Assembly: GCA_018303245.1 (NCBI GenBank)
Contig: JAGVYM010000010.1
Span: forward strand, 1 to 33,688
Length of the DNA stretch: 33,688 bases
From: Candidatus Woesearchaeota archaeon
GTDB lineage: Archaea > Nanobdellota > Nanobdellia > Woesearchaeales > ARS49
Direction: 5' to 3'
The notes under the pieces are model-generated. The model was not told where the DNA came from and made no database searches. It was given only the letters and a program-made list of their open reading frames with translations. The position numbers were made by a program, and so were the translations under genes. Of this stretch, positions 5,654 through 20,097 are shown piece by piece; position 1 is the stretch's first letter; every line of letters begins with the position of its first letter.

Positions 5654-6115
5654 ATGTTGCCGTTTGAAAAAGAGTTTCCCGAATTGGGAGAAAACTTAAC
5701 CACTATGTCTTATTTTATGTTGGTTGAAGAAGCCGCATTTATCAGATATGCGTATTTTGCTCAAAGACCTATGTCCACTCCGGAGTATTATTCTTTTCTT
5801 TTAGGTTTTGAAATAGGTCGTCTTGAAAGGGATGCTAAGTACGCGATTAAAATTGGAATTTACCCCCTTCCACATTTCATTGAAATGGAAAAGATGGCTA
5901 AAGGAGTGGGTGCAAAAGCGTCATATAAGAGGACACTTTCTATCCTTGAACGATTAGCGAAGTGGGGATTTTTGAAAAAGAGACCTGTTCAACATATGAA
6001 GGAGAAATTCTTTTGGGTTCTGAATCCTCCATTCTTGCAGAAATATGGAAGCCAACTCAAGGCAATAGAAGAAAAATCTCCTCTTGTGGAGAAGCAAAAA
6101 GAAGCGAAAACTTAA
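5654..6115 (+). CDS. hypothetical protein, winged-helix-like C-terminal half
   Basis: 153 aa. SYKRTLSILERLAKWGFLKKR resembles a wHTH recognition helix plus wing. Confidence 0.5.
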   Translation: MLPFEKEFPELGENLTTMSYFMLVEEAAFIRYAYFAQRPMSTPEYYSFLLGFEIGRLERDAKYAIKIGIYPLPHFIEMEKMAKGVGAKASYKRTLSILERLAKWGFLKKRPVQHMKEKFFWVLNPPFLQKYGSQLKAIEEKSPLVEKQKEAKT

Positions 6116-6144
6116 TATATTTCTATTATATCAGTTGATATAAC

Positions 6145-6450
6145 ATGACTGAACTCATAAATTCGCACGGAGAGAACATTTTGCGTTTTCCTAGACTTGA
6201 TACTGTGCTTATGGTTGAGGAGTTTATCAAAGCGCATGACGGAGAGTTGAAAAAGCGCAAGCTCTGGGAGTCGCTACCGAAAAAGATGATGTATCAGACC
6301 TTTTGCGTTGTCATTGATTATTTGCTTCAATCACACAAGCTTTCAATTGATGCAGAAGGCAAGATTGGCTGGATGTACTATCCTGAAACCGCAAAGAGAT
6401 ATTGCGAGAGGGCTGACTTAGGAAGACGCAAAATCAAAAAGTTTAAATAA
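6145..6450 (+). CDS. hypothetical small protein (wHTH-like)
   Basis: 101-aa ORF on the same strand as its neighbours. No firm motif. Confidence 0.5.
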   Translation: MTELINSHGENILRFPRLDTVLMVEEFIKAHDGELKKRKLWESLPKKMMYQTFCVVIDYLLQSHKLSIDAEGKIGWMYYPETAKRYCERADLGRRKIKKFK

Positions 6451-6470
6451 AAGTAAGACCTATCTTACTT
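6442..6470 (+). promoter_or_regulatory. TA-module promoter with palindromic operator
   Basis: TTTAAATA (6442-6449) is followed by the perfect inverted repeat AAGTAAGA-CCTA-TCTTACTT (6451-6470), which ends 1 nt before ATG 6472. Confidence 0.45.
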
Positions 6471-6471
6471 T

Positions 6472-6738
6472 ATGGAAATCGCTATAACGACGATGAGTTC
6501 AAAAGGGCAGATTGTGATACCTAAAGAAATGCGCTCACGCATAAAAGAAGGTGAAAAAATAGTTATTTTGGAGCGAGATGGTCAATTTGTACTCAAGTTA
6601 GCTCGCAATCTGGACAAAAACTTCAAGGACGATTTGGAGTTTGCAAGAAGGACTGAAGACGCGTGGAAAAGCTACGATAGAGGAGAGTTTAAGTCAAGTT
6701 CTGCAGAGGATTTCTTAAAAGAATTAAGCAAATGGTAA
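6472..6738 (+). CDS. AbrB/SpoVT-fold antitoxin
   Basis: SSKGQIVIPKEMRSRIKEGEKIVILERDGQFVLKL is a classic SpoVT/AbrB swapped-hairpin motif. It overlaps the toxin gene by 7 nt. Confidence 0.8.
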   Translation: MEIAITTMSSKGQIVIPKEMRSRIKEGEKIVILERDGQFVLKLARNLDKNFKDDLEFARRTEDAWKSYDRGEFKSSSAEDFLKELSKW

Positions 6739-6986
6739 TGCCTATAGTTGAGCGAAGAACAGAGTTTGATAAATCCGTCCAAAAGCTAAAAGATGGCTTG
6801 TTGCGAGAAAAAGTTCATAAGCAGATTGCAAAAATAATACAAGACCCTGAACTCGGCAAGCCGATGATGTACGCGCGAAAAGGAACAAGGGAAGTCTACA
6901 TTCCCCCTTTTCGCTTGTCGTACGCATACCTTGCTGAAGAAAACAAGATAATCTTGCTCGATTTATATCACAAAGACGACCAATAG
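6732..6986 (+). CDS. RelE/ParE-family toxin
   Basis: 84 aa. PELGKPMMYARKGTREVYIPPFRLSYAY...IILLDLYHKDDQ matches the RelE/ParE C-terminal consensus (GKP..G..e....fRl.Y......I.ll...HKd). Confidence 0.8.
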   Translation: MVMPIVERRTEFDKSVQKLKDGLLREKVHKQIAKIIQDPELGKPMMYARKGTREVYIPPFRLSYAYLAEENKIILLDLYHKDDQ

Positions 6987-7036
6987 GTTTTAAGTAGTTG
7001 CAGTTCATCAAGGCAGTTAACTTCTGGCACTTAGCT

Positions 7037-7048
7037 CAGCCACGGCAT
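7037..7048. repeat. att-like repeat copy A (CAGCCACGGCAT)
   Basis: Identical to the last 12 nt of copy B. It matches 11/12 to the tRNA-Glu 3' end CAGCCGCGGCAT. Confidence 0.4.
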
Positions 7049-7082
7049 ACAATTTTTAGTTCATTTACGGTAGTTCACCGTT

Positions 7083-7583
7083 TCACTCAGGAATATGATT
7101 TATGTTCAGTCCTCGCTTTGGAAATCTTGCAGTTAAATTTTCCCTAATTACGTAGTCACCAAAACTAACAATTGCCAAAGCCATTGCTTTAAATCTGCCA
7201 ACTTGTTCCATTTTCTTTTTTTGGTATGGATGAAACATAACCCAAACAGAATGTTCTAATCCGTTAATTTTGTGTTCATCACCCTCATACTGAAAATTAA
7301 AGTCCTTATTTATCTGCACTTCAACAGTTCCAGAAGAATAGTTGAATCTTTGAAAAATTTCATCTCTCTCCAAAACACCTTTTTCTGTTTTAATATACTG
7401 CCAAGGTTCTCTTATGCTGCTTTCTCGAGGAGAGTTTCTAAATGAGTTTGTTACTTTTAAAAATAATTCAGCTGGATTTCCAAATAAAAGAACAGGCCAA
7501 TTATCATAAATTTTGAGTTTGCCTTCTAATATGGCTTCGTCATTACATTCTTTGAGTTTATCTAAATATTCACTTAATTTCAT
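7083..7583 (-). CDS. hypothetical protein bracketed by the two att-like copies
   Basis: 166-aa ORF with non-repetitive sequence. No motif recognised. Confidence 0.6.
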   Translation of the reverse strand: MKLSEYLDKLKECNDEAILEGKLKIYDNWPVLLFGNPAELFLKVTNSFRNSPRESSIREPWQYIKTEKGVLERDEIFQRFNYSSGTVEVQINKDFNFQYEGDEHKINGLEHSVWVMFHPYQKKKMEQVGRFKAMALAIVSFGDYVIRENLTARFPKRGLNINHIPE

Positions 7584-7700
7584 GTGTTTATTTGAAGAAA
7601 GTGGGTTTTTAAAGCTTACTGGCAGGCTAACTAAACAGTGACAATTTTGTGCTTAGAATGACTGTGTACTGATTAGTGCCGTAATTGAACTTTTTTCATC

Positions 7701-7718
7701 GGTTCCCAGCCACGGCAT
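7701..7718. repeat. att-like repeat copy B (degenerate tRNA-Glu 3' end)
   Basis: GGTTCCCAGCCACGGCAT versus tRNA GGTTC(AAATC)CCAGCCGCGGCAT. 17/18 positions match, with one 5-nt gap. Confidence 0.5.
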
Positions 7719-7730: not shown

Positions 7731-7831
7731 ATAATTCATATGATTATTCATATCCATTATCCACGCACTTTTTAAGCGATTTGTAGAGATTTCGACCACA
7801 AACCTTTTAAAGCCTTAAATAATTCATATGA
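7731..7831 (+). promoter_or_regulatory. upstream region of the giant-gene operon with three ATTCATAT boxes and TATA-like elements
   Basis: ATTCATAT occurs at 7734, 7746 and 7822. ATAATTCATATGA is repeated at 7731 and 7819. The second copy contains the 10-bp palindrome TTCATATGAA. TTTTAAAG (7805) and CTTAAATAA (7814) are TATA-like. Confidence 0.35.
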
Positions 7832-7874
7832 AAATTCAGGCACAGCACCCGAACAAAAAGAGGATGGTTTTACT

Positions 7875-8036
7875 TTGAGCACAGGCATCACGCGCCGCTT
7901 GCAGCGAACGCCGAAAGATCAGTATACGGTGACGATTCCTAAAACGTTGGTCAAGCTTCTCAAGTGGAACAATAAAGACGAGCTTGAGTTTGATTTTGAG
8001 AACGGTAAATTGACGCTTAAAAGGGTGAGAAAGTGA
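7875..8036 (+). CDS. small AbrB/SpoVT-like DNA-binding protein (53 aa), not in the ORF track
   Basis: The frame is open from 7776. Translation is ..YTVTIPKTLVKLLKWNNKDELEFDFENGKLTLKRVRK. The only in-frame start is TTG 7875. Its stop, TGA 8034-8036, overlaps GTG 8033 of the giant gene (GTGA). The start is uncertain, and a frameshift from ATG 7828 is not excluded. Confidence 0.5.
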   Translation: MSTGITRRLQRTPKDQYTVTIPKTLVKLLKWNNKDELEFDFENGKLTLKRVRK

Positions 8037-11000
8037 AGCGTGCCCTCTTGCTCCTGGTTCTTCTTGCAGTATGTGCTGCTGCAGTCAATGTGACCGAGAA
8101 CGTTGTAGTTAACGTGAACGTCTCGCCGTCCAATGTTTTTGTGGAAGAGCAAACTTCAAGTTATTTGCCGTCAGCAGGTGCAAACGAGTCAGTCTCAGTT
8201 ATTGAAAGAGTTCACGTTATTGAAGTTGTAGAATCTCCTATGATTAAACGAGAAATAACGCCAGTTCAAAACAACACTAAGATAAACGAGACAGAAAACA
8301 TTACAGAACTCGCAAGAGAAATGGATGATGAAGTGAACCTTTCTGCCTGGATTGAAAATGGAACAGAGGTGTTGCCTGAACTTGTTCCCGAAGTAGCTCC
8401 TGAACCGGTGATTCCATCAGTCGAAGTTCCATCCGTTGAGACTCCAACAAGTTTTGGTCCGGTGCAAGAGCAGGATAGTGAGTTGGTCCGCGTGCCTGAG
8501 GTGATAGCTCCGGTAATTTTGCCTTCGCAGATAAATGAAACGCATAACGTTACTGGACGCATAAATTTCAAAGCGTTGGTGCGTGATGCAAAAGGAAATG
8601 TGCTTGATGCGCAAATCGTGGTGAAAGACCGATTGGGCGCAGTGGTCGCAGAAGAGTTGATTGGCGCGCGAACTGTTGCGCAAGAACTAACAGTGCCAAC
8701 CGGTCCAGTTGATGTGGAGATAGAATTCGCACAAGGTCCGATTACAAGAGTGACGCTTGATGAAGCAAACCTCTCCGAAAGCCAAGGGTTTGTCCGTGTG
8801 GACGATGTGCCAGAGCCAATAGGTTGGGTGAGCGTGTATGCAATCGACCCTTCCCAAGTTATTTTCGAGCAGGGAAAGTTGCACGCGGTTGCACAGGGAA
8901 ACGCGCTCTATAAGTGCAAGGACTGGGATTTTGACGCGCGTGTGTGTGATGGAAATTGGACTCTTGTTCAAGCTCTTGTTCCAGGTCAACCCTACGTTGT
9001 TGAGATAAGTTCAAGTGATCCTGCGTTCGGGGAAATAATTGCGACGGAGGCAATACACTTGGATGAAAATGGAACAGTGCTTGAGAATATTTATCCCGCA
9101 ATAAGTGCCATTGATAATGTCTGGTCATCATTGATTCCTGCGAATCATTCAGTTCGTGTCACGTTTGAAAAGAATCTCACCAACGGAAACGTGATAGATT
9201 TCATAGGACAAAGTAATGGGACGTTTGTAGACATCCAAATCTACCGTGCGGGTACAAGCGAGTTTGTCGGTAGGACTGGTCCGATGGATTTACAGGAGTG
9301 GCGTTTTGTTGAGCTTTCAAATCTTTCAAGTTCATCAGATACGTTCGATTTGCGCATTGTAGGTCTTCTCCCGCCAGTCTGTAGCCCAGATGATGACTGT
9401 TTGATTTCGCAAGAACTTCCATTCATGGAGTTTGAATATATTCATGACGAAGCGGCTACGGCGAATGGAACGGCAGGGGTTGCGGTTTACTCAGAGAGTG
9501 GAACTGTTTCTCCACGCTATCGCAACTGGAACATGACTACTCAGCAATGGGCGGGTGAGACCACGGCGCTTGCGAATACAGGAGAAGCGTCATGGGTCGT
9601 GTTGCGAAGTAGTCATGAGTTTGATAGCCAATTTTTCTCAGGAGTTATAGGTACAGATACGAATGTTTCGCTCCAGGTTGGTCAGGGCTTCAACTCATCT
9701 GGTGGTGTTAACTGGACCATAAGATATAACCTTTCGGCAGATGTTCCCAACACAGGTCTGCGCTCTCTTGATATCGGAGTTGAAGATGTTTCAGGTAATG
9801 CGGTTGTAGTGTTCGAAACAAGTGCTTCGGGTGACACAGGGGTGGCGCTCAGTGTTTGGAATGGCACCACGCTTGATGCAGAGCAGACATTCAATATCTC
9901 TTCGAGCGGAGGAGTCCAATGGATTCGCGCAGTTTCCCGTTCGAGCACAAATGAAGTGATGATTCTCACACTGAACAGTTTGAATGACTTGTATGCGACT
10001 TTGTGGAACGGCAGCTCGTTTGTAAACGCGACTGGCTTTACTATTACAACAGATACCGGAGTTACAACCGATGAGGTCTTTGACTTTGTCTGGGAGTCCA
10101 ACGGGAATGGTTTAGTTGTTTACCGTGAGAATAGTAGCACGTCGATTCAGTATAGAACATTCAATGGGGGGACAAGAAGTTGGAGCGCGGCTGGTAATTT
10201 CTTCACGCTTGATGGTGGAAGTCCAACTGAGTTCAAGCTCTGTGCTGACCCGACTTCAAATTATGTTGGATTTATTTCTTCCGACTCAACTGATGATGTG
10301 AACGCCGTGATTTGGAATGGCACCGCGGTGGAGACTTCTCCTGCTGCTCCCTCGGAAATTGCCGCGGTTGAGCCCAATACTGCTCCTGCGCGCAATGTTG
10401 GCTGTGTTTGGTCAGTGGATGGCAGGAATGCGACCTTTGTTTTTGTTGATGCGAATGCGCCAACTGATGATTTGATTTCTTTTGCAAGGTATAACAAGAC
10501 GTCTTGGTCTGTTTCAAGTTTGGCAAGCCCTGAACGGTCTGAAACAGTCACGGGAGGACCCAGCATCGAGCGTTTGGAAGCTTACATAAATCCGTTCACT
10601 TCAGAAATTCAAGTTCTTACATTGGATGCTGGAGGAAACGATGACTTGCATTCCGCGCTCTGGAACCGAACTTCGTGGGTGGTGAGTTCCGGAGGGAATT
10701 ACTTTTTGGAAACGACCGTGTCGTGTGGCGGTGGGACGACGCAGTGCGCGGACTTTGTCTGGAACGCATTTGATCCTGCTCCGAACCTGACGTTGAGTGT
10801 TCCTCAAGGTGCGTCGTTCAACCAAAGCGACATCATCAACATCACGGTGAACGCTTCGGACAACTATCAGGTGGACAAGGTGAACATCACGATATACGCG
10901 CCAAATGGAACCTTGCTTCAGTATAACCTGACGCTTGTGCAAGGGAACTCGACGTCTGGTTTGTACGCGCTGAATTTCACCAACACTACCTTTACGCTGG

Positions 11001-14000
11001 GAAGGTATAACTTTTCGGTTGAGGCAAATGATACGAGCACGCACGACAATAGTAATTTTACCTCTGGCTTTTTTACCATCGCAAACGTGACTTCTTGTCC
11101 AGCAGTACTGCTTGCGAATACGACGCTTGCACAGAACATTTCTGCGACAGGTAGTTGCCTTTCGTTTGGAGAAAACAACATCATGCTCGACTGTAATGGA
11201 TTTGCCATCCGTTATGACAGTTCAGGCACAGGGGCCGCTTCTGGAATAACTGCCAGCGATAAAGTGAATGTCACGATTAAGAACTGTGTTCTCATAGATT
11301 CTTCTCTTGTGGGCGGGGAAAGTGTAGCGCTTAATCTGACGAGGACCAATCAAAGCTCGCTGACCAATCTTACTGTTCAGACGAATGGTACTAATGATAA
11401 TTATGCGCTGTTCATGTTGCACTCGTTTGAGAACACGCTGGTGAATCTGACGCTGCGCAGTAATGGCAGCGCGGGAAACAATACAGTGGTTTATCTGATA
11501 AATTCCTCAAGGAATAACTTCACACAGCTTACTGCGAGTGCGAACGGTTCTGCCAACAACACCGGGATTCTGGTGCAGGCAGCGCACGGGAATAGTTTCG
11601 TGAATGTTGCGCTGAACACATCGGGAACCTCAAGCTATGGAGTGGAGATTCGTTCAAGTGAGAACAACACGTTCCAGAATATTAGTTTGCGTACTGTGCA
11701 ATGGATTAACGCGAGTGTAAGTGCTGCGACGAATTTTACTAATACTGCTTTCGTCACCGGAACTGGTAGCCTGCTTTATCCTGGAGTTGTGACGATGACA
11801 GGGACGCACGACATCACTTCGACCAAAGTCGCTCTGACTTCGAATAGGACGTTTGTCAACAGCACCAATCTTTCGTTCCTGAACGTTTCCGCGCAAGTCG
11901 CTTTGTTCAGCATTAATTTCACCAGTCCTGCGATGCTTTATGATCAGAACGATAACGGTAGCTTTATCGATTGTACTTCGCCGCGTTGTGTTAACGTGAG
12001 TTTTGCAAGCAATGTCTTCACTTTCAACGTGAGCAGCTTTACAACATACGCGGCTACCGCGTCGCTTCAAAATGTCACGTTCAGCATCTCTGATATGCCT
12101 GATCCGGTGAGTCGCGGGGGCCAGTTGAATTACACAATCATTGTGAACAATACGGGAACAGAGACTGCGTTTAACGTGACGGTGAATTCTACCTATGCAT
12201 CAAGTGTGGTGTTTGATAGTTCTTCTCCATCAGCTGCTGGAAACATCACGTTCAGTTTGGGAAACATTAGCGCGGGAAGCGTGTTCATGATTAACATCAC
12301 GGTGAATGTGAGTCTTTCATCATGGAATGGTACGCTTTTGAACCACTCGGCGAACGTCACGTTTACGAACGCGTCTGGTCAAGCGACTTTGCAGGCCACA
12401 AGTCAGCTTACGCTGGTGAGGGGAACTCCGGGAATTAGTACGAGCATGACTGATTCTCCTAGTCCAGTTATGGTGGGAAGTACGTTGAGGTATAACATTA
12501 CGGTGAACAATTCAGGTGATGATACTGCGTTCAATGTGAGCGTGTTGGAGTCGTATCCTTCGGGTGTTGTGTTTAACAATAGTTTTCCTTCGCCAAGTTC
12601 GGGGAATGAGACATTTACAATTGGTACGCTTGCGCCGAACCAGTCGACCACAATCAATATCACAGTAAACGTAAGTTCAGGTGTGGCGAACGGTACAACG
12701 CTCAATAATTCCTATATGGTCACGTTTGGGAATGCTTCGGGCATGAATAGTTCGGTGACCAACAGTACGTTGACGACCGCGCAGGCGACGTTTGTGGCGA
12801 ATGTGAGTGCGAACATGAGTGACTCTCCTGATCCTGTCGTGCGGGGGGCACAGCTGAATTATACAATAACTATCAACAACACAGGAAGCGATGGAGTGTA
12901 CAACGTGAGCGCGGTGGAGTCATATCCTGCAGGAGTGGTTTTCCATAGCTCTTCTCCAAGTTCCAGTTCAGGGAATGGTACTTTTATACTTGGCAATCTC
13001 ACTGCAGGGACGGGTACGACTGTTAACATCACTGTGAACGTGACCGCTTCCAACGCGACGTCATTGAACAATACTGCGGCGATTAACTTTTCGAATGTGG
13101 CAGGGTTGACGACGACCATCAGCGCAAGTACGCTCACATTGGTGCGTGGATTTCCAAGCATGACTGCGAGTGTTAACGATACTCCTGATTTTGTTTTAGT
13201 GAACAAGAGTGTTCTTTACCAAGTATTGCTCAATAATTCAGGTGATGATACTGCGTTCAATTCCACCTTGGTGTTGACCTATCCGACTGGAACGATTTTC
13301 AACGCGAGCGCGCCGGTTCCGGTGTTGGGAAACACCAATTTCACAGTGGGTAATTTCTCTCCCAACCAGACCTTGCTGGTGAATCTGACGCTCAATGTAA
13401 CCAGCGCGGTTGAGAATGGGACAAGTCTGAACTTGTCAGGTGTGCTTTCGTTTGGAAACGCGTCGGGCTCAAACACGAGTGTTGTTGCAAGTGTGCTCAC
13501 CACTGTCCGTGGTTTCCCGTTCATTGTAGTGACGCATTCTGACTCTCCTGATCCAGTTTTCAGAGGCGCAACTCTGGTCTATACGGTGAATGTGACGAAC
13601 GCAGGTTATGATATCGCTTACAACACGACCCTTGTGGAAAGTTATCCTTCAAATACAACTTTCCTTAACGCATCGCCCGCTCCTTCAATTGGCAATTCCA
13701 CGTTTAATCTGGGTAACCTTTCGATAAATAGCTCTGCAGTTGTTGTTATACTGCTGAATACTACAACAGGAATTGCGAACGCGACCCAATTGAATAATTC
13801 GGTCAACGTGTCTTTTGTGAATGGTTCAAGCGAGTCATCTGAAGTGAATGTTTCAGTCTTGACAACAGTCATTGCAGGTTCTGCTCCTTCAGTCGTATCA
13901 AGTGGTCCGTTGAACCGTACCAACCTGACGATATCTACGCAGGTATTCAGCGCAAATGTTACGGACGATTCATCTGCAAATTTCACTTGCCTGCTTGCGA

Positions 14001-16558
14001 TTGACAGTTCTACAAATATGACAAACAGTAGTGTTCAGAATAACACCTTGCTTAACTTTAGCGGGACAGGACTCGCGCAAGGGAATCATTCCTGGAACGT
14101 TGCGTGTACTGACCTTTCCGCAAACACCAATGCGAGCGAGACGCGTATATTTGTTGTTGACTCGACAAGTCCTGAGTTCAACTCGCTCTCGCTCAATCCC
14201 AACAGCTCTGCAGGGCTTGACCCGGGAGCGGCGGTTGTCTTTACCGCAAATGTGAGTGATAATTATACCTCAGTGGATACAGTAGTTCTGCATATTTTGC
14301 GAAATGGCAACGCTGTGCAGAACACAACCATGACGTTGAATGCGAGCACGGGTTTGTTTAACGCGACGGTCAATGTGACGGAAAGCGCAGCGTATGGCGC
14401 GTTCATTGTCGCAAATGATTCGTTCGGGAATCAGGGGACTTCGACGGCGGTGAACTTTACAGTTGAGCTTGATAACAATTGGATTCAGCCGTCCTCTCTT
14501 GGCGCGTTTGTCGCAACCCCTGGTCAGAATATAAGTTTGGGGACGCTGGTCATCAACAACAGTGGTGACTATCGCAGGTCGTTTAACATAAGTTCTACAT
14601 TGAATGGAACTGCATTCAACGAGTCTGCTTTTACCATCAACGGCGGTCAGTTAAGGTACATTCAGGTCAACGTCAGCGTTCCATTAAGTTCGGGAGTCTT
14701 GCTCAATAACCTTACCATCAACTCCTCTGCCGGAACAAGTAACATATTTGTAGATGTGAATGGGAGCGATTTCAGCCAGACTAATGTGAGCTTTATCATA
14801 GTCACAGTCGATGACGCGTTCCTGTTCACCAATTTCACGACCATTCCTGTTTCAGTCACGCAGGGACAGTCTAGTGTCGCAATCCAAGCGCAGGTGAAGA
14901 ATATTGGGACCAGAAACGCAAGTAATGTTACTTTGAATATCACGCTTCCTTCGGAGTGGACAGTGCAGGGAGGAAGTACGAGCGCGAGTTTTAGTGTGCT
15001 TGAGCCAAATGACACTGAAATTTTGAACGTGCTTGTTGCAATCCCAACGACTGCTGCGACCGGGTATAAGAGTGTGTTCGCGAGCGTGGATGGAGTTAAC
15101 AATTCAGGCACGGTGCTTTCTTCGCAGAATTTGACGTTGAACGCGACTGGGCAAGTGCTTGTCGAATCAGCGCAAGGGGTCTTCGGGAAGCAGGGTTCAG
15201 GGGGTTCTAGTGGGTCGGGTAGTTCAGGAAGTGGAGCGGGAGGTGCTGGCTCAAGTGGTCCAGGTGGTGTGGCTCCAGGAACTTTTGGAAAGTCCACGGA
15301 ACACGCGGTCCTGGTCACCAATGAAACTATTGAAGTTGTGCGTGGCTCGCGGATTGTGTTTCCGCTGCTTGTCACAAATGTTTACAACAATTCGTTGATG
15401 AAGAAAGTTTCTCTTGATGTTGAGGGAGCGCTTGCAAGGTATGTGCAGTGGAATCCTCAAGTGCTTGAGACTATATTGTTTGGGCGAAGCAAGGTGTTTG
15501 AGGTTGAAGTTGCCGCTCCGCTCTACGCGAACCGTTCAGAGATTAACATCACGTTCGCAATTACTTCAGAGCTGGAATCTGAAGGTATAGTGTACAAAGC
15601 AGGGGTTCCTTTCGCAGAGACGTTTAAGAAAAGCGTGATTGAGTACAAGACGATTCGTGTGGTTATTCGTGAGGTGAGTCCCGCCCAGGCCAAGGAACAG
15701 TTTGTTGGGGTTGAGGGTTTGTACGAGCAGGTTGTTGCGAAGAAATATCCAACTGCCAAGGCCGATATTTTGCTTGAGCTTCTTCGGAACGCGATGTACG
15801 CGCAGAATTATGAGGACGCAGTCTATATTGCTGGAAAGCTCAAGATTTTGCTTGAGAAAGAGCTTGAGGCGGGAGCCGCGATTGAAGCGCTTAAAGAGCG
15901 CATCGCGCAGGCAAAGGATGACGGGCTCGATGTCCGGGAAACAGAAGAAATCCTTGCGTTGGCGGCGAAAGCGTTTGAGGTTGAGGATTTTGAGAAGGCG
16001 CTTGCTCGGGCTGACGAGGCGGTTGCGATTCAGTTCATTGAACTCAAAGGCGCGTTCAACATAGTGCGTTTGGTGGAAAAATATTGGTGGATGATTGTTC
16101 TTATTGCAGGAGCGGCAAGTACGGGAACCTATGTTGGCTGGAGGAAGATATATGTGAAGTACATTGCTTATCGCTTGGAACTCCTTGAGAGCGAGCAGGT
16201 GAGTGTCCAAAAGACGGTGAAGGAAGTTCAGGAGCAATACTTTGTGAAAAAGGAGCTTGGCTCTGATGCGTTTTATGATGCGATGGAAAAGCTCGTTAAA
16301 AAGACAGAGAGTGTTCGCGGTGCGGTGCTTCGTTTGCGGTTGCGCCGTGCGCACATGTTGGGCGCGCGAAAGGCGCTTGAAGTGGAGCTTAAGGAGCGCG
16401 CAAGTTTGCAAGAAGAACTACGAAAGCTTCAGGAAGATTATTTTGTCAAAGGAAAGCTTTCGGGGAAAAGGTATGGTGTGCAGAGTGAGAGTCTGCGTTT
16501 GCTTACGGTTGAGGTCGACGCACGCATTGCGGTGTTGCGCAAGAGGTTGAAAAAATGA
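8033..16558 (+). CDS. giant (2841 aa) membrane-anchored, heavily sequon-decorated surface protein
   Basis: Uninterrupted 8.5-kb ORF. N-terminal signal peptide MKRALLLLVLLAVCAAAV. P/E/V linker. WNG-repeat region. Parallel beta-helix turns. Five DUF11-like repeats and Ig-like segments. G/S linker (15187-15285). TM helix YWWMIVLIAGAASTGTYVGW (16081-16140). About 140-aa cytoplasmic coiled coil. Confidence 0.9.
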   Translation: MKRALLLLVLLAVCAAAVNVTENVVVNVNVSPSNVFVEEQTSSYLPSAGANESVSVIERVHVIEVVESPMIKREITPVQNNTKINETENITELAREMDDEVNLSAWIENGTEVLPELVPEVAPEPVIPSVEVPSVETPTSFGPVQEQDSELVRVPEVIAPVILPSQINETHNVTGRINFKALVRDAKGNVLDAQIVVKDRLGAVVAEELIGARTVAQELTVPTGPVDVEIEFAQGPITRVTLDEANLSESQGFVRVDDVPEPIGWVSVYAIDPSQVIFEQGKLHAVAQGNALYKCKDWDFDARVCDGNWTLVQALVPGQPYVVEISSSDPAFGEIIATEAIHLDENGTVLENIYPAISAIDNVWSSLIPANHSVRVTFEKNLTNGNVIDFIGQSNGTFVDIQIYRAGTSEFVGRTGPMDLQEWRFVELSNLSSSSDTFDLRIVGLLPPVCSPDDDCLISQELPFMEFEYIHDEAATANGTAGVAVYSESGTVSPRYRNWNMTTQQWAGETTALANTGEASWVVLRSSHEFDSQFFSGVIGTDTNVSLQVGQGFNSSGGVNWTIRYNLSADVPNTGLRSLDIGVEDVSGNAVVVFETSASGDTGVALSVWNGTTLDAEQTFNISSSGGVQWIRAVSRSSTNEVMILTLNSLNDLYATLWNGSSFVNATGFTITTDTGVTTDEVFDFVWESNGNGLVVYRENSSTSIQYRTFNGGTRSWSAAGNFFTLDGGSPTEFKLCADPTSNYVGFISSDSTDDVNAVIWNGTAVETSPAAPSEIAAVEPNTAPARNVGCVWSVDGRNATFVFVDANAPTDDLISFARYNKTSWSVSSLASPERSETVTGGPSIERLEAYINPFTSEIQVLTLDAGGNDDLHSALWNRTSWVVSSGGNYFLETTVSCGGGTTQCADFVWNAFDPAPNLTLSVPQGASFNQSDIINITVNASDNYQVDKVNITIYAPNGTLLQYNLTLVQGNSTSGLYALNFTNTTFTLGRYNFSVEANDTSTHDNSNFTSGFFTIANVTSCPAVLLANTTLAQNISATGSCLSFGENNIMLDCNGFAIRYDSSGTGAASGITASDKVNVTIKNCVLIDSSLVGGESVALNLTRTNQSSLTNLTVQTNGTNDNYALFMLHSFENTLVNLTLRSNGSAGNNTVVYLINSSRNNFTQLTASANGSANNTGILVQAAHGNSFVNVALNTSGTSSYGVEIRSSENNTFQNISLRTVQWINASVSAATNFTNTAFVTGTGSLLYPGVVTMTGTHDITSTKVALTSNRTFVNSTNLSFLNVSAQVALFSINFTSPAMLYDQNDNGSFIDCTSPRCVNVSFASNVFTFNVSSFTTYAATASLQNVTFSISDMPDPVSRGGQLNYTIIVNNTGTETAFNVTVNSTYASSVVFDSSSPSAAGNITFSLGNISAGSVFMINITVNVSLSSWNGTLLNHSANVTFTNASGQATLQATSQLTLVRGTPGISTSMTDSPSPVMVGSTLRYNITVNNSGDDTAFNVSVLESYPSGVVFNNSFPSPSSGNETFTIGTLAPNQSTTINITVNVSSGVANGTTLNNSYMVTFGNASGMNSSVTNSTLTTAQATFVANVSANMSDSPDPVVRGAQLNYTITINNTGSDGVYNVSAVESYPAGVVFHSSSPSSSSGNGTFILGNLTAGTGTTVNITVNVTASNATSLNNTAAINFSNVAGLTTTISASTLTLVRGFPSMTASVNDTPDFVLVNKSVLYQVLLNNSGDDTAFNSTLVLTYPTGTIFNASAPVPVLGNTNFTVGNFSPNQTLLVNLTLNVTSAVENGTSLNLSGVLSFGNASGSNTSVVASVLTTVRGFPFIVVTHSDSPDPVFRGATLVYTVNVTNAGYDIAYNTTLVESYPSNTTFLNASPAPSIGNSTFNLGNLSINSSAVVVILLNTTTGIANATQLNNSVNVSFVNGSSESSEVNVSVLTTVIAGSAPSVVSSGPLNRTNLTISTQVFSANVTDDSSANFTCLLAIDSSTNMTNSSVQNNTLLNFSGTGLAQGNHSWNVACTDLSANTNASETRIFVVDSTSPEFNSLSLNPNSSAGLDPGAAVVFTANVSDNYTSVDTVVLHILRNGNAVQNTTMTLNASTGLFNATVNVTESAAYGAFIVANDSFGNQGTSTAVNFTVELDNNWIQPSSLGAFVATPGQNISLGTLVINNSGDYRRSFNISSTLNGTAFNESAFTINGGQLRYIQVNVSVPLSSGVLLNNLTINSSAGTSNIFVDVNGSDFSQTNVSFIIVTVDDAFLFTNFTTIPVSVTQGQSSVAIQAQVKNIGTRNASNVTLNITLPSEWTVQGGSTSASFSVLEPNDTEILNVLVAIPTTAATGYKSVFASVDGVNNSGTVLSSQNLTLNATGQVLVESAQGVFGKQGSGGSSGSGSSGSGAGGAGSSGPGGVAPGTFGKSTEHAVLVTNETIEVVRGSRIVFPLLVTNVYNNSLMKKVSLDVEGALARYVQWNPQVLETILFGRSKVFEVEVAAPLYANRSEINITFAITSELESEGIVYKAGVPFAETFKKSVIEYKTIRVVIREVSPAQAKEQFVGVEGLYEQVVAKKYPTAKADILLELLRNAMYAQNYEDAVYIAGKLKILLEKELEAGAAIEALKERIAQAKDDGLDVRETEEILALAAKAFEVEDFEKALARADEAVAIQFIELKGAFNIVRLVEKYWWMIVLIAGAASTGTYVGWRKIYVKYIAYRLELLESEQVSVQKTVKEVQEQYFVKKELGSDAFYDAMEKLVKKTESVRGAVLRLRLRRAHMLGARKALEVELKERASLQEELRKLQEDYFVKGKLSGKRYGVQSESLRLLTVEVDARIAVLRKRLKK
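9527..10672 (+). repeat. coding repeats with [WFY]-N-x-[TSG] motif, beta-propeller-like
   Basis: The motif aromatic lies at aa 499, 609, 658, 710, 761, 820 and 877 (WNMT, WNGT, WNGS, FNGG, WNGT, YNKT, WNRT). Spacings are 110, 49, 52, 51, 59 and 57 aa. Confidence 0.5.
11190..11700 (+). repeat. right-handed parallel beta-helix (PbH1/NosD-like) coding turns
   Basis: Five successive 25-27-aa units: NQSSLTNLTVQTNG.., FENTLVNLTLRSNG.., SRNNFTQLTASANG.., HGNSFVNVALNTSG.., ENNTFQNISLRT. They are preceded by VNVTIKNCVLIDSS. Confidence 0.6.
12070..13875 (+). repeat. five tandem DUF11-like (conserved repeat domain) coding repeats
   Basis: The anchor codon CCT of the (D/T)xPD/S motif lies at 12098, 12458, 12827, 13184 and 13547, giving spacings of 120, 123, 119 and 121 aa. 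Consensus: SDSPDPVxRGxxLxYTIxVNNTGxDxAFNVxVxESYPxGVxFxxSxPxPSxGNxTFxLGNLxxxxxxxxNITVNV. Confidence 0.8.
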
Positions 16559-17472
16559 AGGTCGTGTTACTCATTTTGTTGCTTTCCACACTGGTTGTCG
16601 CTGCGTCTTCAGAGGATGCCCGAGAGGCGTATTTGAACGCGACGGTGCACGTCGAGCAGATGAAACGGGCAGGTTTTCCGCACGGTTTGATGGATGGCTT
16701 GCTTCAGGATATGGAAATCGCGCTCAAAGGTAAGAATGCGTCAAAACTACTCCAGACTGCTTTGATTCTCAACCAGACAGAAGAGGGAATACTGAGAGCG
16801 CAGGAATATTTTGCAGAGCTTGAGTCTGCCCGTTTGCAGGGTTTGCAGCCTGGCCAGAATTTCTCAATGGTCATCCACTATGCGCAACTGATTGCGTACA
16901 AGCGCGAGCAAGCTTTTGAGGCTCGTGATGAACTTAAGAGAGTGGAGGAGATTATCGCAGGAGCAGAGAATATCAATCTGTCGCGGGTGAATGAACTGTT
17001 GCAGGAGGCGCAGGATTCATTTGCGAGTGAGAAGTACGAGCTGATTCCTGGCTTGGTGAACCAGACTGAGGTCGCGTTGGAAGACGCAAAAGTTGCCGCT
17101 GCGCGTAACCGTGCTCTTGCCCGCCTTGCCCGTCGTAATCTGTTGAGTTTTGTCGAGGATAATTGGTTGAGCGTGCTTGTTGTGTTGTTGATTTTTTCCG
17201 TGCTTGGCCTCTGGGGATTTGTGGAGGGCAGGGTTTTTTATGCCGCGAAAAAGGTGCGAGTGCTGGAAAGCGAGCTTGCCGCCGCGCATGAGGGGCTGTT
17301 GCAGGCGCAGAAAGAGTATTACTCTGGAGAAAGTGGAAGGTCGACCTATGGAGCGCGGACCGAAAAGGTGCATGAGAAACAGCGAGCAATTAGCAGCCAG
17401 CTCCACGCCTGGCGTGAACTGCATGCCAAATACTTGAAGACGGCCGTTATCGCGCGATTCAGGCCAAAGTGA
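16555..17472 (+). CDS. signal-peptide plus C-terminal-TM anchored helical protein, partner of the giant protein
   Basis: ATGA start/stop overlap with the giant gene, with GAGGT 8 nt upstream. Signal peptide MKVVLLILLLSTLVVAASS. TM helix WLSVLVVLLIFSVLGLWGFV. The cytoplasmic tail carries the same Q-E-x-Y-[FY] motif as the giant protein. Confidence 0.75.
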   Translation: MKVVLLILLLSTLVVAASSEDAREAYLNATVHVEQMKRAGFPHGLMDGLLQDMEIALKGKNASKLLQTALILNQTEEGILRAQEYFAELESARLQGLQPGQNFSMVIHYAQLIAYKREQAFEARDELKRVEEIIAGAENINLSRVNELLQEAQDSFASEKYELIPGLVNQTEVALEDAKVAAARNRALARLARRNLLSFVEDNWLSVLVVLLIFSVLGLWGFVEGRVFYAAKKVRVLESELAAAHEGLLQAQKEYYSGESGRSTYGARTEKVHEKQRAISSQLHAWRELHAKYLKTAVIARFRPK

Positions 17473-18334
17473 AGACTTCTTGCTCAGGGTAGACGACGAT
17501 TCCTTGTCCCGTCTTGATTTGGAAAGGAACGATTTTTTTCTTGAAGCCGCTTCCGCGCATCTTGAGGATTTCAAACGCGCTTTCACGCACGTTTCCCTGT
17601 CGCAGGTTGTAGAAGATGAATACTCCGTCCGCGAGGAATTCTTCTGAGCCTGAACTGCTGAGCTTAACTCCAGGATCGTTCGATTCGGAGATAAGGAATG
17701 TCGTTGCCCCTATTTCCTTGAAAATGTTGAATAGTTGTTCGATATAGATTCGGTAGGATTCTTCTTTGCCGTATAGTGCCGAGGCGACTGCGGAGAGCGA
17801 GTCGATGGCGACGCGGTCGGGCTTGTAATCGGAAGGGATAACCATTGGGCGGATGTCGATGAGAAGTTCTCCTTTGATGCGTTCCATCATGGCGTCTATT
17901 TGGCGAGTGATGTCCATGGGTGTGAATTTGCGTATCATGAAGTGTCCACTTTTTTCAAGGGGGGCTATGTCCCAGCCAAAATCTTTCATGTGTTTGCGCA
18001 ATGTTTCCGGTGTTTCTTCAAGGGTTATGTAGAAGACGCGTTCTCCCGCTTTCGCGGCGTGATAGAGTGTTTGGAGACAGAAGATGGTTTTTCCGCTTCC
18101 TGGTCCCCCGATGGTGAGGATAGAACTTCCGCGGGGGATTCCGTTCATGAAAAGTTCATCAAGTCCCACCACTCCTGTTCCAACATACTCTTGTCCGCTG
18201 ATGGGAATCTTGCGGTGAGGTTGGGCTTCTTGGAGTTTTTGTTGGATATGTTCTTTTATTTTTGCCGCGTCAATGAGTGGCCTGTGGATTTCAGTAGGGG
18301 ATGTTGTTTGAGCGGGAACCTCTTTTTTTGGCAT
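17459..18334 (-). CDS. single-domain KaiC-like (RecA-superfamily) ATPase
   Basis: GLDELFMNGIPRGSSILTIGGPGSGKT (Walker A), YITLEE (catalytic Glu pair), RVAIDSLS (Walker B), FLADGVFIF. The 3' end overlaps the convergent gene by 14 nt. Confidence 0.9.
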   Translation of the reverse strand: MPKKEVPAQTTSPTEIHRPLIDAAKIKEHIQQKLQEAQPHRKIPISGQEYVGTGVVGLDELFMNGIPRGSSILTIGGPGSGKTIFCLQTLYHAAKAGERVFYITLEETPETLRKHMKDFGWDIAPLEKSGHFMIRKFTPMDITRQIDAMMERIKGELLIDIRPMVIPSDYKPDRVAIDSLSAVASALYGKEESYRIYIEQLFNIFKEIGATTFLISESNDPGVKLSSSGSEEFLADGVFIFYNLRQGNVRESAFEILKMRGSGFKKKIVPFQIKTGQGIVVYPEQEVFTLA

Positions 18335-18357
18335 ATTATGTAATGGATGGTTTGTTG

Positions 18358-18423
18358 TTTAAAAAGTTAACTTTGAGTTTGCTGGTAAGTTGTTCCTCAC
18401 AAAGAGTGATAAATGTATATAAA
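18358..18423. promoter_or_regulatory. divergent promoter region (two TATA boxes)
   Basis: The minus-strand TTTTTAAA (18358-18365) lies 23 nt from KaiC-like ATG 18334. The plus-strand TATATAAA (18416-18423) lies 22 nt from ATG 18446. Confidence 0.45.
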
Positions 18424-18445
18424 CATGGTTGGCGGAAAGGGTCAC

Positions 18446-19216
18446 ATGCGTGCATCAGGATGGCTGGTCAGTGTCGGCGTGGTTGTTTTTGTGGTTCAGG
18501 CAATCGTGGTGCTCACCCAGCAGCAGAATGCGTTCCTGGCAGGGGATGGGTTGTCGGTCGTGCTTGCTCTTGCCGCTGCGCTAGGCTGTCTTGTAGTCTG
18601 GAAAAAGCTGCAGCACGCATTTTACTTGGAAAAAAAAGGCTGGCTTTTGACCAGTCTTGCGTTCTTCTTGTTTGCGTTTGGTGACGGAATTTGGGCGTAT
18701 TATGAATTTTTTCATCTTTCACAGCTTCCTGTATTTCTTGTCCCGCAGATTTTTTGGACGCTGGCGTACGTGTTTTGGATTTTTGGCCTCAAACAGTTTT
18801 TGGAGACGAGGTTCTTTCCTTCCCGTGCTCCTGTGATAGGCGTAATGGCTGCTTCCCTTGGACTCGCGGTTCTGCACGCGTACAAACCATTCCTGCAGTT
18901 GATACATGACGGTCGTTTGCTGATTTTTCTGAACAGTTTGTATGTGTCATATGATTACATCTTGCTTGGCCTCGTGGTGCTTATTATCGCTCCGTTTATT
19001 GTGCACCACACGCGCCTTTTAACAACCTGGGTGTTGCTGAGCCTTGCGATTGTGGCGAGGATTTTGTTTGATTTCATTTTGGTGAACTCGCACGCGTACT
19101 GGTCTGGCCACCCCGCGATATTACTGTATAGCGGGGCTTATGTACTGTGTCTGCTTGCCGCCCATGCAAAGCTTGGAATTTTCCAAGACGTGGTGAGGAA
19201 ATGGTTGTATCATTGA
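18446..19216 (+). CDS. polytopic membrane protein (about 7 TM)
   Basis: The track ORF starts at ATG 18413. I prefer ATG 18446 because a TATA box sits at 18416-18423, which would give a leaderless transcript. The sequence is hydrophobic throughout. The stop overlaps the next gene by 16 nt. Confidence 0.65.
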   Translation: MRASGWLVSVGVVVFVVQAIVVLTQQQNAFLAGDGLSVVLALAAALGCLVVWKKLQHAFYLEKKGWLLTSLAFFLFAFGDGIWAYYEFFHLSQLPVFLVPQIFWTLAYVFWIFGLKQFLETRFFPSRAPVIGVMAASLGLAVLHAYKPFLQLIHDGRLLIFLNSLYVSYDYILLGLVVLIIAPFIVHHTRLLTTWVLLSLAIVARILFDFILVNSHAYWSGHPAILLYSGAYVLCLLAAHAKLGIFQDVVRKWLYH

Positions 19217-19680
19217 TTATCACGCGCGGTGAGAAGACGACCGATGCGTTTTTGACGCAGCTGCAAAAGGTGAGCGGCGAGATCGGGATTTGTGTCCTAC
19301 TGATGCGAAAGTATGATGAAATGGTGCGTCTTCTTGCAAAAAAGAACATCAAGAGCGATGGTTTTTTGTTTGTGGATGGTTGTTCCTCTCCTGACGAAAC
19401 AAACATGATTCACACGTCGCTTGATAACCTTACGTTGATGAGCATCACAATAAATGAGGCAATCCAGGCCTTGCCTAAGGAACGGCGTTTTGTCGCGTTT
19501 GATGCGTTCGGTACGCTTGCGCTCTATAACGCCCCGCGTGTCGTGGCGAAGTTCGCGTTTTTCCTCAACCAGCAGGTGCGCGAGCTGGGTATGGATTGTG
19601 TCTGGATTGTCGCGCGTGAAGGTCTTGACCCAGAGTTGCTCGCGACTCTCAAGCAGTGTGCGGACGTGATTGAGGGATGA
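19201..19680 (+). CDS. P-loop-less KaiC-like domain protein (DUF835-like), copy 1
   Basis: Start at ATG 19201, preceded by GGTGAGGA. GICVLLMRKYDEMVRLL.., RRFVAFDAFGTL (Walker-B-like), GMDCVWIVAREG and CADVIEG align block-for-block with the KaiC-like genes of this window. No GxxGxGKT is present. Confidence 0.65.
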   Translation: MVVSLIITRGEKTTDAFLTQLQKVSGEIGICVLLMRKYDEMVRLLAKKNIKSDGFLFVDGCSSPDETNMIHTSLDNLTLMSITINEAIQALPKERRFVAFDAFGTLALYNAPRVVAKFAFFLNQQVRELGMDCVWIVAREGLDPELLATLKQCADVIEG

Positions 19681-19689
19681 CGCACTACA

Positions 19690-20095: not shown

Positions 20096-20097
20096 GC

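Follow-up and report, generated by a model that had tools for sequence, protein, structure and literature searches.

A 33,688-nucleotide (nt) stretch of DNA from a Candidatus Woesearchaeota archaeon (assembly GCA_018303245.1, contig JAGVYM010000010.1, positions 1 to 33,688 of the forward strand), which in its entirety is referred to here as the window, carries a three-gene operon composed of a small open reading frame (ORF) of the AbrB/MazE/SpoVT fold, the gene of a giant surface protein, and the gene of a smaller membrane protein, designated the partner. The present analysis indicates that the partner is a paralogue of the membrane-anchor module found at the C terminus of the giant protein, that the pair is conserved among related archaea, and that KaiC-like ATPases recur beside it. 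We interpret the system, with moderate confidence, as an adhesin-like giant protein that is N-glycosylated, anchored in the membrane, and autoregulated, that is accompanied by a paralogous co-anchor, and whose cytoplasmic hairpins probably connect to KaiC signaling. The functional links are far less secure than the structural and genomic facts, and adhesion, complex formation, and signaling are what we infer from the latter.

Results

Organization of the operon

The three genes lie at the following positions, counted from the first letter of the window.

7875–8036, forward strand: 53-residue ORF of the AbrB/MazE/SpoVT fold (Pfam PF04014), with a TTG start and the Shine-Dalgarno-like sequence GAGGA 10 nt upstream
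8033–16558, forward strand: giant surface-protein gene, 2841 residues, with a GTG start and the Shine-Dalgarno-like sequence GGGTGA 5 nt upstream
16555–17472, forward strand: partner gene, 305 residues, with an ATG start

The genes are translationally coupled. The TGA stop codon of the 53-residue ORF overlaps the GTG start codon of the giant gene at 8033 (GTGA, 4-nt overlap), and the TGA of the giant gene overlaps the ATG of the partner gene (ATGA, 4-nt overlap). An earlier reading made from the letters alone, hereafter the sequence-only reading, had described an AbrB-like ORF that runs into the giant gene through GTGA and a stop-free giant ORF that runs into a 305-residue gene through ATGA. 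Both descriptions agree with the ORF coordinates, the giant frame being free of stops over all 2841 codons, and the 53-residue ORF passes the gathering score of the MazE/AbrB/SpoVT family PF04014 (31.0 bits versus 24.7, E = 2.4e-7). The GC content climbs from ~0.38 to ~0.47 near position 8000.

Homology between the partner and the anchor module of the giant protein

15686–16555, forward strand: partner-like anchor module, giant residues 2552–2841, comprising a helical ectodomain, a transmembrane (TM) helix, and two cytoplasmic hairpin repeats; from a hidden Markov model (HMM) and hhalign
16082–16141, forward strand: giant TM helix, residues 2684–2703, YWWMIVLIAGAASTGTYVGW; aligns with the partner TM helix, with RK..K after it
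16226–16474, forward strand: two copies of a cytoplasmic motif, giant residues 2732–2748 and 2799–2814, Q-E-x-Y-F-V-K-x-x-L-(S/G)-x-x-x-(x)-Y
17167–17223, forward strand: partner TM helix, residues 205–223
17305–17349, forward strand: conserved tip of the partner hairpin; from family conservation

The partner consists of a signal peptide, a helical, N-glycosylatable ectodomain of ~185 residues, a TM helix, and a cytoplasmic helical hairpin. BLASTP aligned its residues 101–279 with the helical/TM/tail region of the giant protein (E = 3e-4), the hhalign comparison of six partners with six C-terminal modules of giant proteins gave a probability of 98% (E = 2e-13, 224 columns), and an HMM built from 67 stand-alone partners matched residues 2552–2762 (i-E = 1e-19) and 2772–2841 (i-E = 6e-10) of the giant protein. 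Because the partner HMM matches the C terminus of the giant protein twice, the latter can be described as the anchor module with a second copy of the cytoplasmic repeat, and these matches identify the partner as a paralogue of the module that has a single hairpin. The sequence-only reading had noted that the membrane-proximal region resembles the partner in character, and the BLASTP, hhalign, and HMM results raise this resemblance to true homology. Over 121 shared columns, the mean identity is 37% between giant modules, 27% between partners, and 21% between giant modules and partners, the last value being the same whether the two come from one locus or from different loci. These identities indicate an old duplication with retention of both copies.

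The AlphaFold2 (AF2) model of the partner, with a pLDDT of 95.5, is composed of a signal helix, a multi-helix bundle corresponding to the ectodomain, a TM helix that extends ~30 residues into the cytoplasm (residues 204–257), a turn (residues 258–261), and a return helix (residues 262–296). The most conserved residues of the family, i.e., Q252, K253, Y255, Y256, G261, R262, and Y265, cluster at the turn of the hairpin. The tip motif of the family reads A-Q-x-x-Y-F/Y-x-x-G-x-x-S/G-x-x-x-Y, and both the partner and residues 2552–2841 of the giant protein match the family HMM. A Foldseek search with the partner model returned generic long-helix matches (best E = 0.08, TM-score ≤ 0.27), and no fold was assigned. 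Basic residues follow the TM helix in both proteins, and the cytoplasmic tails are 82 residues long in the partner and 138 in the giant protein. All six N-glycosylation sequons of the partner are located ahead of its TM helix. The sites are conserved: N28, N73-x-T75, and N102-F-S104 are invariant in full, and N141 is invariant as a residue.

When 1.84 billion cluster representatives were searched with a profile, 782 members of the partner family were retrieved at E ≤ 1e-3, of which 331 had E ≤ 1e-10; the family thus has at least 782 clusters at 50% identity. The members are mostly 260–360 residues long, and some form the C terminus of proteins of 1500–3500 residues. Pfam, run over 67 members, yielded no consistent family and no model for the module. 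Nor did it match MCPsignal (PF00015) in the tails of the giant protein and the partner, the hairpins being only ~80 residues long, or in the 67 members, and membership in the chemoreceptors (methyl-accepting chemotaxis proteins) was rejected because that domain was not found. All of the named members are annotated as “hypothetical protein” of Woesearchaeota or Nanobdellota, the GTDB species genomes contain one match (Candidatus Woesearchaeota RIFCSPLOWO2_12_FULL_46_25), and the best homologues of the giant protein are Woesearchaeota proteins. The attribution of the system to DPANN archaea is supported by the fact that the named relatives of both proteins all come from Woesearchaeota or Nanobdellota.

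Among the related loci (designated by L numbers; homologous proteins are designated by P numbers), the order of giant gene and then partner gene was found in every one whose giant 3′ end is covered, and the two genes mostly overlap by 4 nt. The pairing is seen in the window, L001/L016, L002, L003/L004, L005/L009, L006–L008, L013, and L017, and in L031, from Nanobdellota (GCA_051819805.1), the gene of a 1758-residue surface protein is followed by that of a partner. The three-gene arrangement described by the sequence-only reading thus holds in relatives as far as the giant–partner pair is concerned, but the AbrB-like ORF is kept only in the nearest clade.

Two other loci contain members of the partner family in different settings. 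In L032 (2634–8998), a divergent 503-residue member comes after the gene of a ParA/MinD-like ATPase and is followed by a convergent KaiC-like ATPase gene and two DUF7504-like genes; because the ParA/MinD-like ATPase gene precedes this member, the anchor family may serve other cytoplasmic ATPases too. L022 (9494–13169), which has an ORF of the winged helix-turn-helix (wHTH) type, retains just a head fragment of 475 residues and partner-like fragments of 175 and 173 residues, and has the appearance of a degenerated version of it.

KaiC-like ATPases beside the giant–partner pair

17459–18334, reverse strand: KaiC-like ATPase (PF06745, E = 1e-53), convergent with the operon and overlapping the 3′ end of the partner gene by 14 nt
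18413–19216 with 19147–19680, forward strand: multi-TM protein and inactivated KaiC (DUF7504-like), first pair; looser association
19670–20095 with 20098–20583, forward strand: multi-TM protein and inactivated KaiC (DUF7504-like), second pair; looser association

The product of 17459–18334 belongs to the KaiC family: it scores 182 bits against PF06745, versus a cutoff of 26.6, and its Walker A, catalytic EE, and Walker B motifs are intact, the translation reading GGPGSGKT, LEET, and AIDSLS. Its orthologues, with 44–87% identity, adjoin the pair in L002, L003/L004, L005/L009, L006–L008, L015, L017, L018, L020, and L027, and further orthologues are present in the contig of P0009, in L031, and in L032, which brings the total to at least 12 loci. 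The gene is positioned either convergently just past the partner gene or directly upstream of the giant gene. The KaiC-like ATPase, which the sequence-only reading did not mention, is a near-constant neighbor of the pair and the strongest of the conserved ones.

DUF7504-like genes often accompany the KaiC-like ATPase gene beside the giant/partner loci. DUF7504-like proteins align with KaiC (hhalign probability 93.5%, E = 2e-7), the P-loop being replaced by MPGIEYNK, and the products of 19147–19680, 20098–20583, and 23900–24418 were assigned as inactivated KaiC on the grounds of homology to the KaiC core and loss of the P-loop. The scores against the Pfam model DUF7504 (PF24336), 17.6–17.7 bits versus 27, fall below the cutoff, and no mention of DUF7504 was found in the literature searched.

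Positions 17459–32819 of the window form a dense signaling island. It encodes KaiC-like ATPases at 17459–18334, 30072–30800, and 30803–31567, and P-loop-less KaiC homologues at 19147–19680, 20098–20583, and 23900–24418, two of these three genes following and overlapping genes of multi-TM proteins (18413–19216 and 19670–20095). A HAMP histidine kinase (22162–23910), a response regulator (24421–24771), a FIST protein (25957–27303), and a HAMP-PAS protein (31605–32819) are also encoded there. In L031 (1–15382 of JBNJHD010000001.1), genes of CheR, CheD, and CheC lie between the KaiC-like ATPase gene and the surface protein/partner pair, just downstream of which a trio of vWA, DUF58, and MoxR ATPase genes is found. 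Such predicted regulators have been reported near archaeal type IV pili (PMC4858521).

One possibility, which overlaps with the favored model, is that the pair acts primarily as a transmembrane receptor and that adhesion is incidental: the binding of a ligand, or contact, would change the helical bundle and the TM helix in such a way that the hairpin tips control the KaiC-like ATPase and, through a fused or separate DNA-binding domain, transcription. The extracellular helical bundle, the TM helix, and the cytoplasmic hairpin with its conserved tip make up a topology like that of sensor modules. KaiC and inactivated KaiC recur as neighbors, wHTH-KaiC fusions are encoded directly upstream of giant genes, CheR, CheD, and CheC are interposed in L031, and histidine kinases and response regulators are nearby. 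The tails, however, are short, Pfam found no known output or signaling domain in them, and a repeat ectodomain of 2500 residues is far above the size that known sensors need. The gene neighborhood constitutes the whole of the evidence. We consider this explanation unlikely; the bolder extension presented in the Discussion is built on it.

Architecture of the giant protein

8033–8098, forward strand: signal peptide, residues 1–22; hydropathy peak of 2.28 at residues 4–22, with KR ahead
8372–8530, forward strand: P/E/V-rich linker, residues 114–166; read in the translation
8570–11092, forward strand: conserved head of ~840 residues, residues 180–1020 (β-sandwiches, propeller, immunoglobulin (Ig) domain); from homologues and AF2
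9476–10762, forward strand: predicted ~7-bladed β-propeller, residues ~482–910; from AF2 strands, Foldseek, and W-N-G motifs
10781–11020, forward strand: Big_7 Ig-like domain, residues 917–996; Pfam E = 1.3e-4, slightly under the cutoff, in a region conserved in homologues
11141–12067, forward strand: probable right-handed β-helix, residues ~1037–1345; from a weak BLAST match to the Beta_helix/NosD region of P0012
12089–13873, forward strand: five DUF11 (TIGR01451) repeats, residues 1353–1947; Pfam E = 2e-23, NCBIfam E = 1e-20
13880–15085, forward strand: Ig-like/NEW3 β-sandwich stalk, residues 1950–2351; Big_13 E = 5e-5, NPCBM_assoc E = 7e-11
15185–15268, forward strand: G/S-rich linker, residues 2385–2412; read in the translation

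The N terminus of the giant protein, MKRALLLLVLLAVCAAAV, looks like a signal peptide, and hydropathy reveals a hydrophobic, signal-like segment at the N terminus of both the giant protein and the partner. The giant protein contains 179 N-x-S/T sequons, versus 54 ± 6 in composition-preserving shuffles. Every one of them precedes residue 2505, and the cytoplasmic tails of both proteins carry none. This excess and the lack of sequons after residue 2505 both speak for an extended ectodomain that is N-glycosylated and for a C terminus in the cytoplasm. The N-terminal signal peptides, C-terminal TM helices, and cytoplasmic coiled coils that the sequence-only reading had attributed to both large products are supported, the last as helical tails, by hydropathy, by the placement of the sequons, and by the alignment of the TM helices. 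The two linkers it had named were found again in the translation, its five DUF11-like repeats in Pfam, NCBIfam, and the DNA periodicity, and its Ig-like segments as Big_7, Big_13, and NPCBM_assoc.

The head module is 32–54% identical in P0002–P0010, which are giant proteins of Woesearchaeota and related DPANN archaea, and its AF2 model, constructed from a nine-sequence alignment, is all-β (pLDDT 77, pTM 0.68). The region of residues ~482–910 has ~28 strands grouped in fours in this model, the number of blades (~7) having been counted from the DSSP string alone, and W-N-G/x motifs are found at residues 499, 561, 609, 658, 761, and 877. Foldseek matched the region, with a probability of 1.00, to cytochrome cd1 nitrite reductase, sialidases, AFL/fucose lectins, sortilin, and Sec12, and the E values for the cytochrome cd1 propeller, sialidases, fucose lectins, and sortilin ranged from 1e-6 to 1e-8. 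Because of the four-stranded blade pattern and the matches to solved propellers, the WNG-repeat region recognized in the sequence-only reading is now identified as a predicted β-propeller.

The β-helix turns proposed for the following region are weakly supported. BLAST aligned it with a Pfam-confirmed Beta_helix stretch of P0012 (single match, E = 5e-7), but no Pfam match to Beta_helix/PbH1 (PF13229) was obtained in residues 1001–1350 even at E ≤ 1; residues ~1037–1345 are regarded as a probable right-handed β-helix and are not counted as a member of PF13229. Membership of the next region in DUF11 is clear from PF01345 (83.3 bits versus a cutoff of 24.6, four stretches) and TIGR01451 (73.3 bits versus 24), and five copies are visible in the DNA with a period of ~360 nt. 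The G/S-rich linker is followed by another β-sandwich region, the helical region, the TM helix, and the charged helical tail of 138 residues. A Pfam scan of the unassigned segments found nothing in residues 1–480, in the propeller, or in the β-helix-like region, and PDB sequence searches with the giant protein and with the partner gave no matches.

Another possibility is that the giant protein is the main envelope glycoprotein of a surface layer (S-layer) and the partner its membrane stalk, as in SlaA/SlaB or tetrabrachion, in which case the role of the pair would be structural. A large N-glycosylatable protein cotranscribed with a smaller anchored one, both having a signal peptide and a C-terminal TM helix, would suit such a role, as would the membrane-proximal helical stalk. 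Foldseek returned one match to an S-layer protein, 7ptp, with a TM-score of merely 0.10, beyond which neither the PDB sequence searches nor Foldseek gave a sequence or fold match to solved S-layer proteins. The relatives of the giant protein, however, range from 2.3 to 4.9 thousand residues and vary in DUF11 copy number, P0006 carries the head in duplicate, and some domains have been exchanged for others; such plastic architecture is typical of adhesins, not of lattice-forming proteins. Moreover, a dedicated transcription factor of variable fold and the linkage with KaiC suggest conditional expression, and the giant protein, unlike SlaA, has an anchor of its own. We regard an S-layer role as improbable.

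The upstream DNA-binding gene and the promoter

The gene just ahead of the giant gene was surveyed in the loci recovered with the head alignment.

Window, L010, L011, and L014: AbrB/MazE ORF of 53–63 residues with the same overlap (Pfam was run on the ORFs of the window, L010, and L014)
L016, L018, L019, and L022: wHTH-like ORF of 67–73 residues
L020: ribbon-helix-helix (RHH)-like ORF of 54 residues, with a wHTH-KaiC fusion just upstream of it
L021: double helix-turn-helix (HTH) protein of 172 residues
L002, L015, L017, and L027: wHTH-linker-KaiC fusion

This gene almost always encodes a DNA-binding protein, while the fold varies. Because wHTH, RHH, HTH, or wHTH-KaiC proteins replace AbrB elsewhere, the conserved feature is a DNA-binding protein rather than AbrB itself, and the wHTH-KaiC fusion, present in five loci, ties DNA binding to the KaiC-like ATPase. 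The stand-alone wHTH ORFs match the wHTH of the KaiC fusions only weakly (hhalign probability 40%, E = 3e-4), and the two are treated here as sharing the general fold, with orthology unproven. The AbrB orthologues score 28.6 and 24.8 bits against PF04014. Between the window and L010, the ORF has 19 identical codons, 20 synonymous changes, and 15 nonsynonymous changes, which points to purifying selection. A MazEF-like type II toxin-antitoxin (TA) identity of the ORF was rejected: neither Pfam nor NCBIfam found a toxin family in the product of the giant gene, which is the gene coupled to it downstream, and relatives have kept the ORF in synteny with that gene. On the ORF, the MazE/PrlF equivalogs of NCBIfam fall far short of their cutoffs. 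In L029 and L030, which are copies of the window locus, public gene calls skip the ORF, which is short and has a TTG start; because the calls omit it, it would be absent from protein databases built on them.

The predicted promoter region of the operon comprises the following elements.

7805–7812, forward strand: TATA-like box TTTTAAAG with the purine-rich AAACC ahead of it; from reading of the sequence
7823–7837, no strand: palindrome TTCATATGAAAATTC, a candidate operator immediately past the TATA box; shared by AbrB-type loci
7731–7750, no strand: upstream operator-like copy ATAATTCATATGATTATTCA, a direct repeat of the site at 7819–7838, 88 nt away, with a CATATG core

In L010, L011, and L014, the AbrB ORF is preceded at a comparable distance by an equivalent box, AAAGCTTTTAAAT. 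Each of the three copies of the window locus, like L011 and L014, has the exact 15-mer TTCATATGAAAATTC once, always at an AbrB-type promoter, and it was found nowhere else among the 30 loci examined; no such operator-like repeat was found inside the genes of the operon. Archaeal repressor sites are usually located at or after the TATA box. TTCATATGAAAATTC is missing from the wHTH-type loci, which share TAAGTGCRAA instead; this motif lies ahead of the small ORF and, in L018, ahead of the KaiC gene. Tandem arrays with TTCATAT or TATGA half-sites are located upstream of the AbrB-type promoters of L010 (~6100–6230, including five copies of a TTCATATTTCTA unit), L014 (~2610–2720), and L011 (~1370–1600), and may be extra regulator-binding sites or phase-variable repeats.

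A low-GC island of ~6.5 kb (0.37–0.39 versus 0.47) occupies positions 1107–7718 of the window and adjoins tRNA-Glu(TTC) at 1107–1181. Its tyrosine integrase ORF was called at 1072–2385, the true start probably being past the tRNA. The 3′ end of the tRNA, CCCAGCCGCGGCAT (1169–1182), recurs as CCCAGCCACGGCAT at 7705–7718, with 0 matches in 100 shuffles; this repeat was found by eye and confirmed by a pattern search, while a seed-based search found none. As candidates for attL and attR, the two copies would delimit an integrated element that ends ~150 nt ahead of the AbrB ORF. Within the island, at 6472–6986, an 88-residue ORF with a weak MazE/AbrB match overlaps the start of an 84-residue ORF. 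These may constitute a small TA-like pair, the former being a second AbrB-fold gene unrelated to the operon.

It might be argued that there is no functional unit at all, i.e., that the AbrB-like ORF is what remains of an antitoxin or belongs to the integrated element, that the proximity of KaiC is coincidental, and that only a generic giant protein with an adjacent membrane protein remains. PF04014 is indeed an antitoxin family, the integrase element stops close upstream, gene callers skipped the ORF, and other genes replace it in more distant loci. However, the ORF lies outside the att repeat at 7705–7718, the same 4-nt overlap and purifying selection are found in L010, L011, and L014, which were recovered by similarity of the head module, and the promoter palindrome is conserved. 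Likewise, there is no toxin domain downstream according to Pfam and NCBIfam, the replacement genes at the same position all encode DNA-binding proteins, and KaiC orthologues recur in the loci enumerated above. This explanation, largely refuted by the conserved synteny, the purifying selection, and the shared operator, is very improbable.

Soundness of the assembly

The 2841-residue protein is identical in two other assembled ENA samples, ERZ4903055 and ERZ27254752. L012, which is a contig from JGI, shows 100% identity to the first 296 residues of the query that represents the head module (approximately giant residues 180–475) and also contains an identical AbrB ORF and an identical N terminus of the giant protein. 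Collinear orthologues of the giant protein cover residues 1338–2841 with 49–69% identity, and the orthologues of the head region show 43–51% identity. The internal DNA repeats of the giant gene are merely 62–79% identical, even over the best 53 nt. In L006 (2–5263), the giant gene of a close relative is broken into three ORFs of 262, 1072, and 414 residues, whereas the almost identical L007 is intact across the same region; the split reflects either frameshifts in the L006 assembly or a pseudogene. Collapsed or misjoined repeats could in principle have produced the 8.5-kb ORF as a chimera, given that it contains five DUF11 and other Ig-like repeats of a kind that metagenome assemblies can misjoin and that the gene is broken in L006. 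In view of the identical protein in other samples, the collinear orthologues, and the diverged internal repeats, misassembly is very unlikely.

Discussion

In the model that we favor, the giant protein would be exported by the Sec system, N-glycosylated, and project from the membrane as an adhesin-like fiber, and its propeller head would bind to another cell or surface, where the ligand would probably be a glycan or a protein. The partner would join the homologous anchor module of the giant protein to form a hetero-oligomeric membrane base, the hairpin tips of which (Q-x-x-Y-F/Y ... G-x-x-S/G-x-x-x-Y) might dock the adjacent KaiC-like ATPase or its inactivated paralogues, thereby coupling the surface complex to the island of KaiC and two-component signaling. 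In the crenarchaeal archaellum, the KaiC-like protein ArlH docks on the membrane-anchored coiled-coil protein ArlX. KaiC-family ATPases have been predicted to regulate archaeal surface structures, i.e., pili and archaella (PMC4858521), and KaiC ATPases have been proposed as archaeal signaling hubs, in a work cited in PMC5847659. As for regulation, the AbrB-like protein would bind TTCATATGAAAATTC at the transcription start region and thereby autoregulate the operon.

Several points weigh against this model. The binding between the giant protein and the partner is a prediction, and what ties the tails to KaiC is gene neighborhood. No KaiC gene is found within the flanks covered in L001/L016 and L010, the KaiC-like ATPase gene of the window is convergent with the operon and not cotranscribed with it, and, because the neighborhood is a dense signaling island, some of the KaiC proximity could be incidental. 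The search for an informative fusion domain in the tails of longer family members (P0107, P0134, P0207, and others) ended with just low-complexity, K/E-rich coiled coil. The TM helix of the giant protein is just moderately hydrophobic, under the hydropathy threshold of 1.6. The Foldseek matches of the propeller are generic, with 8–13% identity, and point to no ligand, and a regulator other than AbrB could use the TTCATATGAAAATTC palindrome.

A bolder extension of the favored model, which we put forward as speculative and unlikely to be correct, is that the system works as a novel type of archaeal device for outside-in signaling. Contact of the propeller with a host or surface would be transmitted through the hetero-oligomeric helical anchor to the tips, which would recruit or release the KaiC-like ATPase and its inactivated paralogues. 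The ATPase would then reset transcription, including that of the operon itself, by way of a wHTH fused to it or of a separately encoded AbrB, RHH, or wHTH protein. DPANN archaea would in this case have a host-contact sensor specific to them, with the KaiC hub as its basis.

The recognition of hosts by DPANN archaea, their attachment, and their response are little understood, and the giant surface proteins of these organisms have often been noted but rarely dissected. The present locus provides testable parts: a propeller head as the candidate ligand-binding tip, an unnamed anchor family, a hairpin tip, a recurrent KaiC-like ATPase, and an operator sequence. If the proposed links are true, the system would be the first surface complex shown to be connected to the proposed archaeal KaiC signaling hubs and would offer a handle on contact-dependent regulation in episymbionts. 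Even if they fail, a well-delimited new family of membrane anchors, which is worth a Pfam entry, would remain.

Comparison with known systems places the components in perspective. In Sulfolobales SlaA/SlaB and Staphylothermus tetrabrachion, a large glycosylated surface protein is cotranscribed or continuous with an α-helical stalk that has a C-terminal TM anchor, and Sec signal peptides are present. The window pair shares with them the combination of a large surface protein and a helical, TM-anchored stalk, but not sequence or fold. Those systems form lattices. To our knowledge, SlaA has no anchor of its own, SlaB is not a paralogue of SlaA, and none of SlaA, SlaB, and tetrabrachion has a conserved cytoplasmic tail, a KaiC link, or a dedicated small regulator. 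The SPEARE proteins, giant membrane-associated proteins of Nanohaloarchaeota (DPANN) for which Hamm et al. in 2019 reportedly proposed a function in host contact, differ in having protease and restriction-endonuclease domains; neither domains of these kinds nor homology turned up in the giant protein. Like the AbrB/SpoVT/MazE proteins of autoregulated TA operons, the 53-residue ORF is a minimal DNA-binding domain that heads an operon it probably regulates, but the gene downstream of it encodes a giant secreted protein instead of a toxin, and wHTH or RHH proteins fill its position in related loci.

The association of a single-domain KaiC-like ATPase with a surface structure is likewise seen in ArlX–ArlH and in the KaiC-family ATPases of archaeal type IV pili (for pili, PMC4858521). 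In ArlX–ArlH, the membrane protein on which the ATPase docks is monotopic and bears a cytoplasmic coiled coil. The membrane partner of the window has a large extracellular domain, and the window locus, in contrast to archaellum and type IV pilus loci, has no pilin, ArlI/ArlJ, or type IV pilus genes. The closest likeness of the giant protein itself is to the giant repeat adhesins of bacteria and archaea, such as DUF11/TIGR01451 proteins, adhesin-like proteins of methanogens, and RTX/Bap-type proteins, e.g., LapA, which are also very long and secreted, have Ig-like/DUF11 extenders and β-helix or propeller ligand-binding modules near the distal end, and undergo rapid domain shuffling. It is in the anchor that the present system departs from them: a C-terminal helical bundle, TM helix, and cytoplasmic hairpin with a stand-alone paralogue is found in place of a type I secretion system retention plug or a sortase/LPXTG or PGF-CTERM anchor, the sequons mark the protein as a target of archaeal N-glycosylation, and a link to a KaiC-like ATPase stands where control of the LapD/LapG type would be. 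The giant protein is, accordingly, a further member of a familiar class, and the AbrB ORF and the KaiC-like ATPase belong to known families. Judged against Pfam 2025, NCBIfam, PDB, and the literature searched, on the other hand, three features appear undescribed: the anchor/partner family itself, the obligatory association of its members with a giant protein bearing the same module, and the recurrent link of the family to KaiC-like ATPases and to DNA-binding proteins of variable fold.

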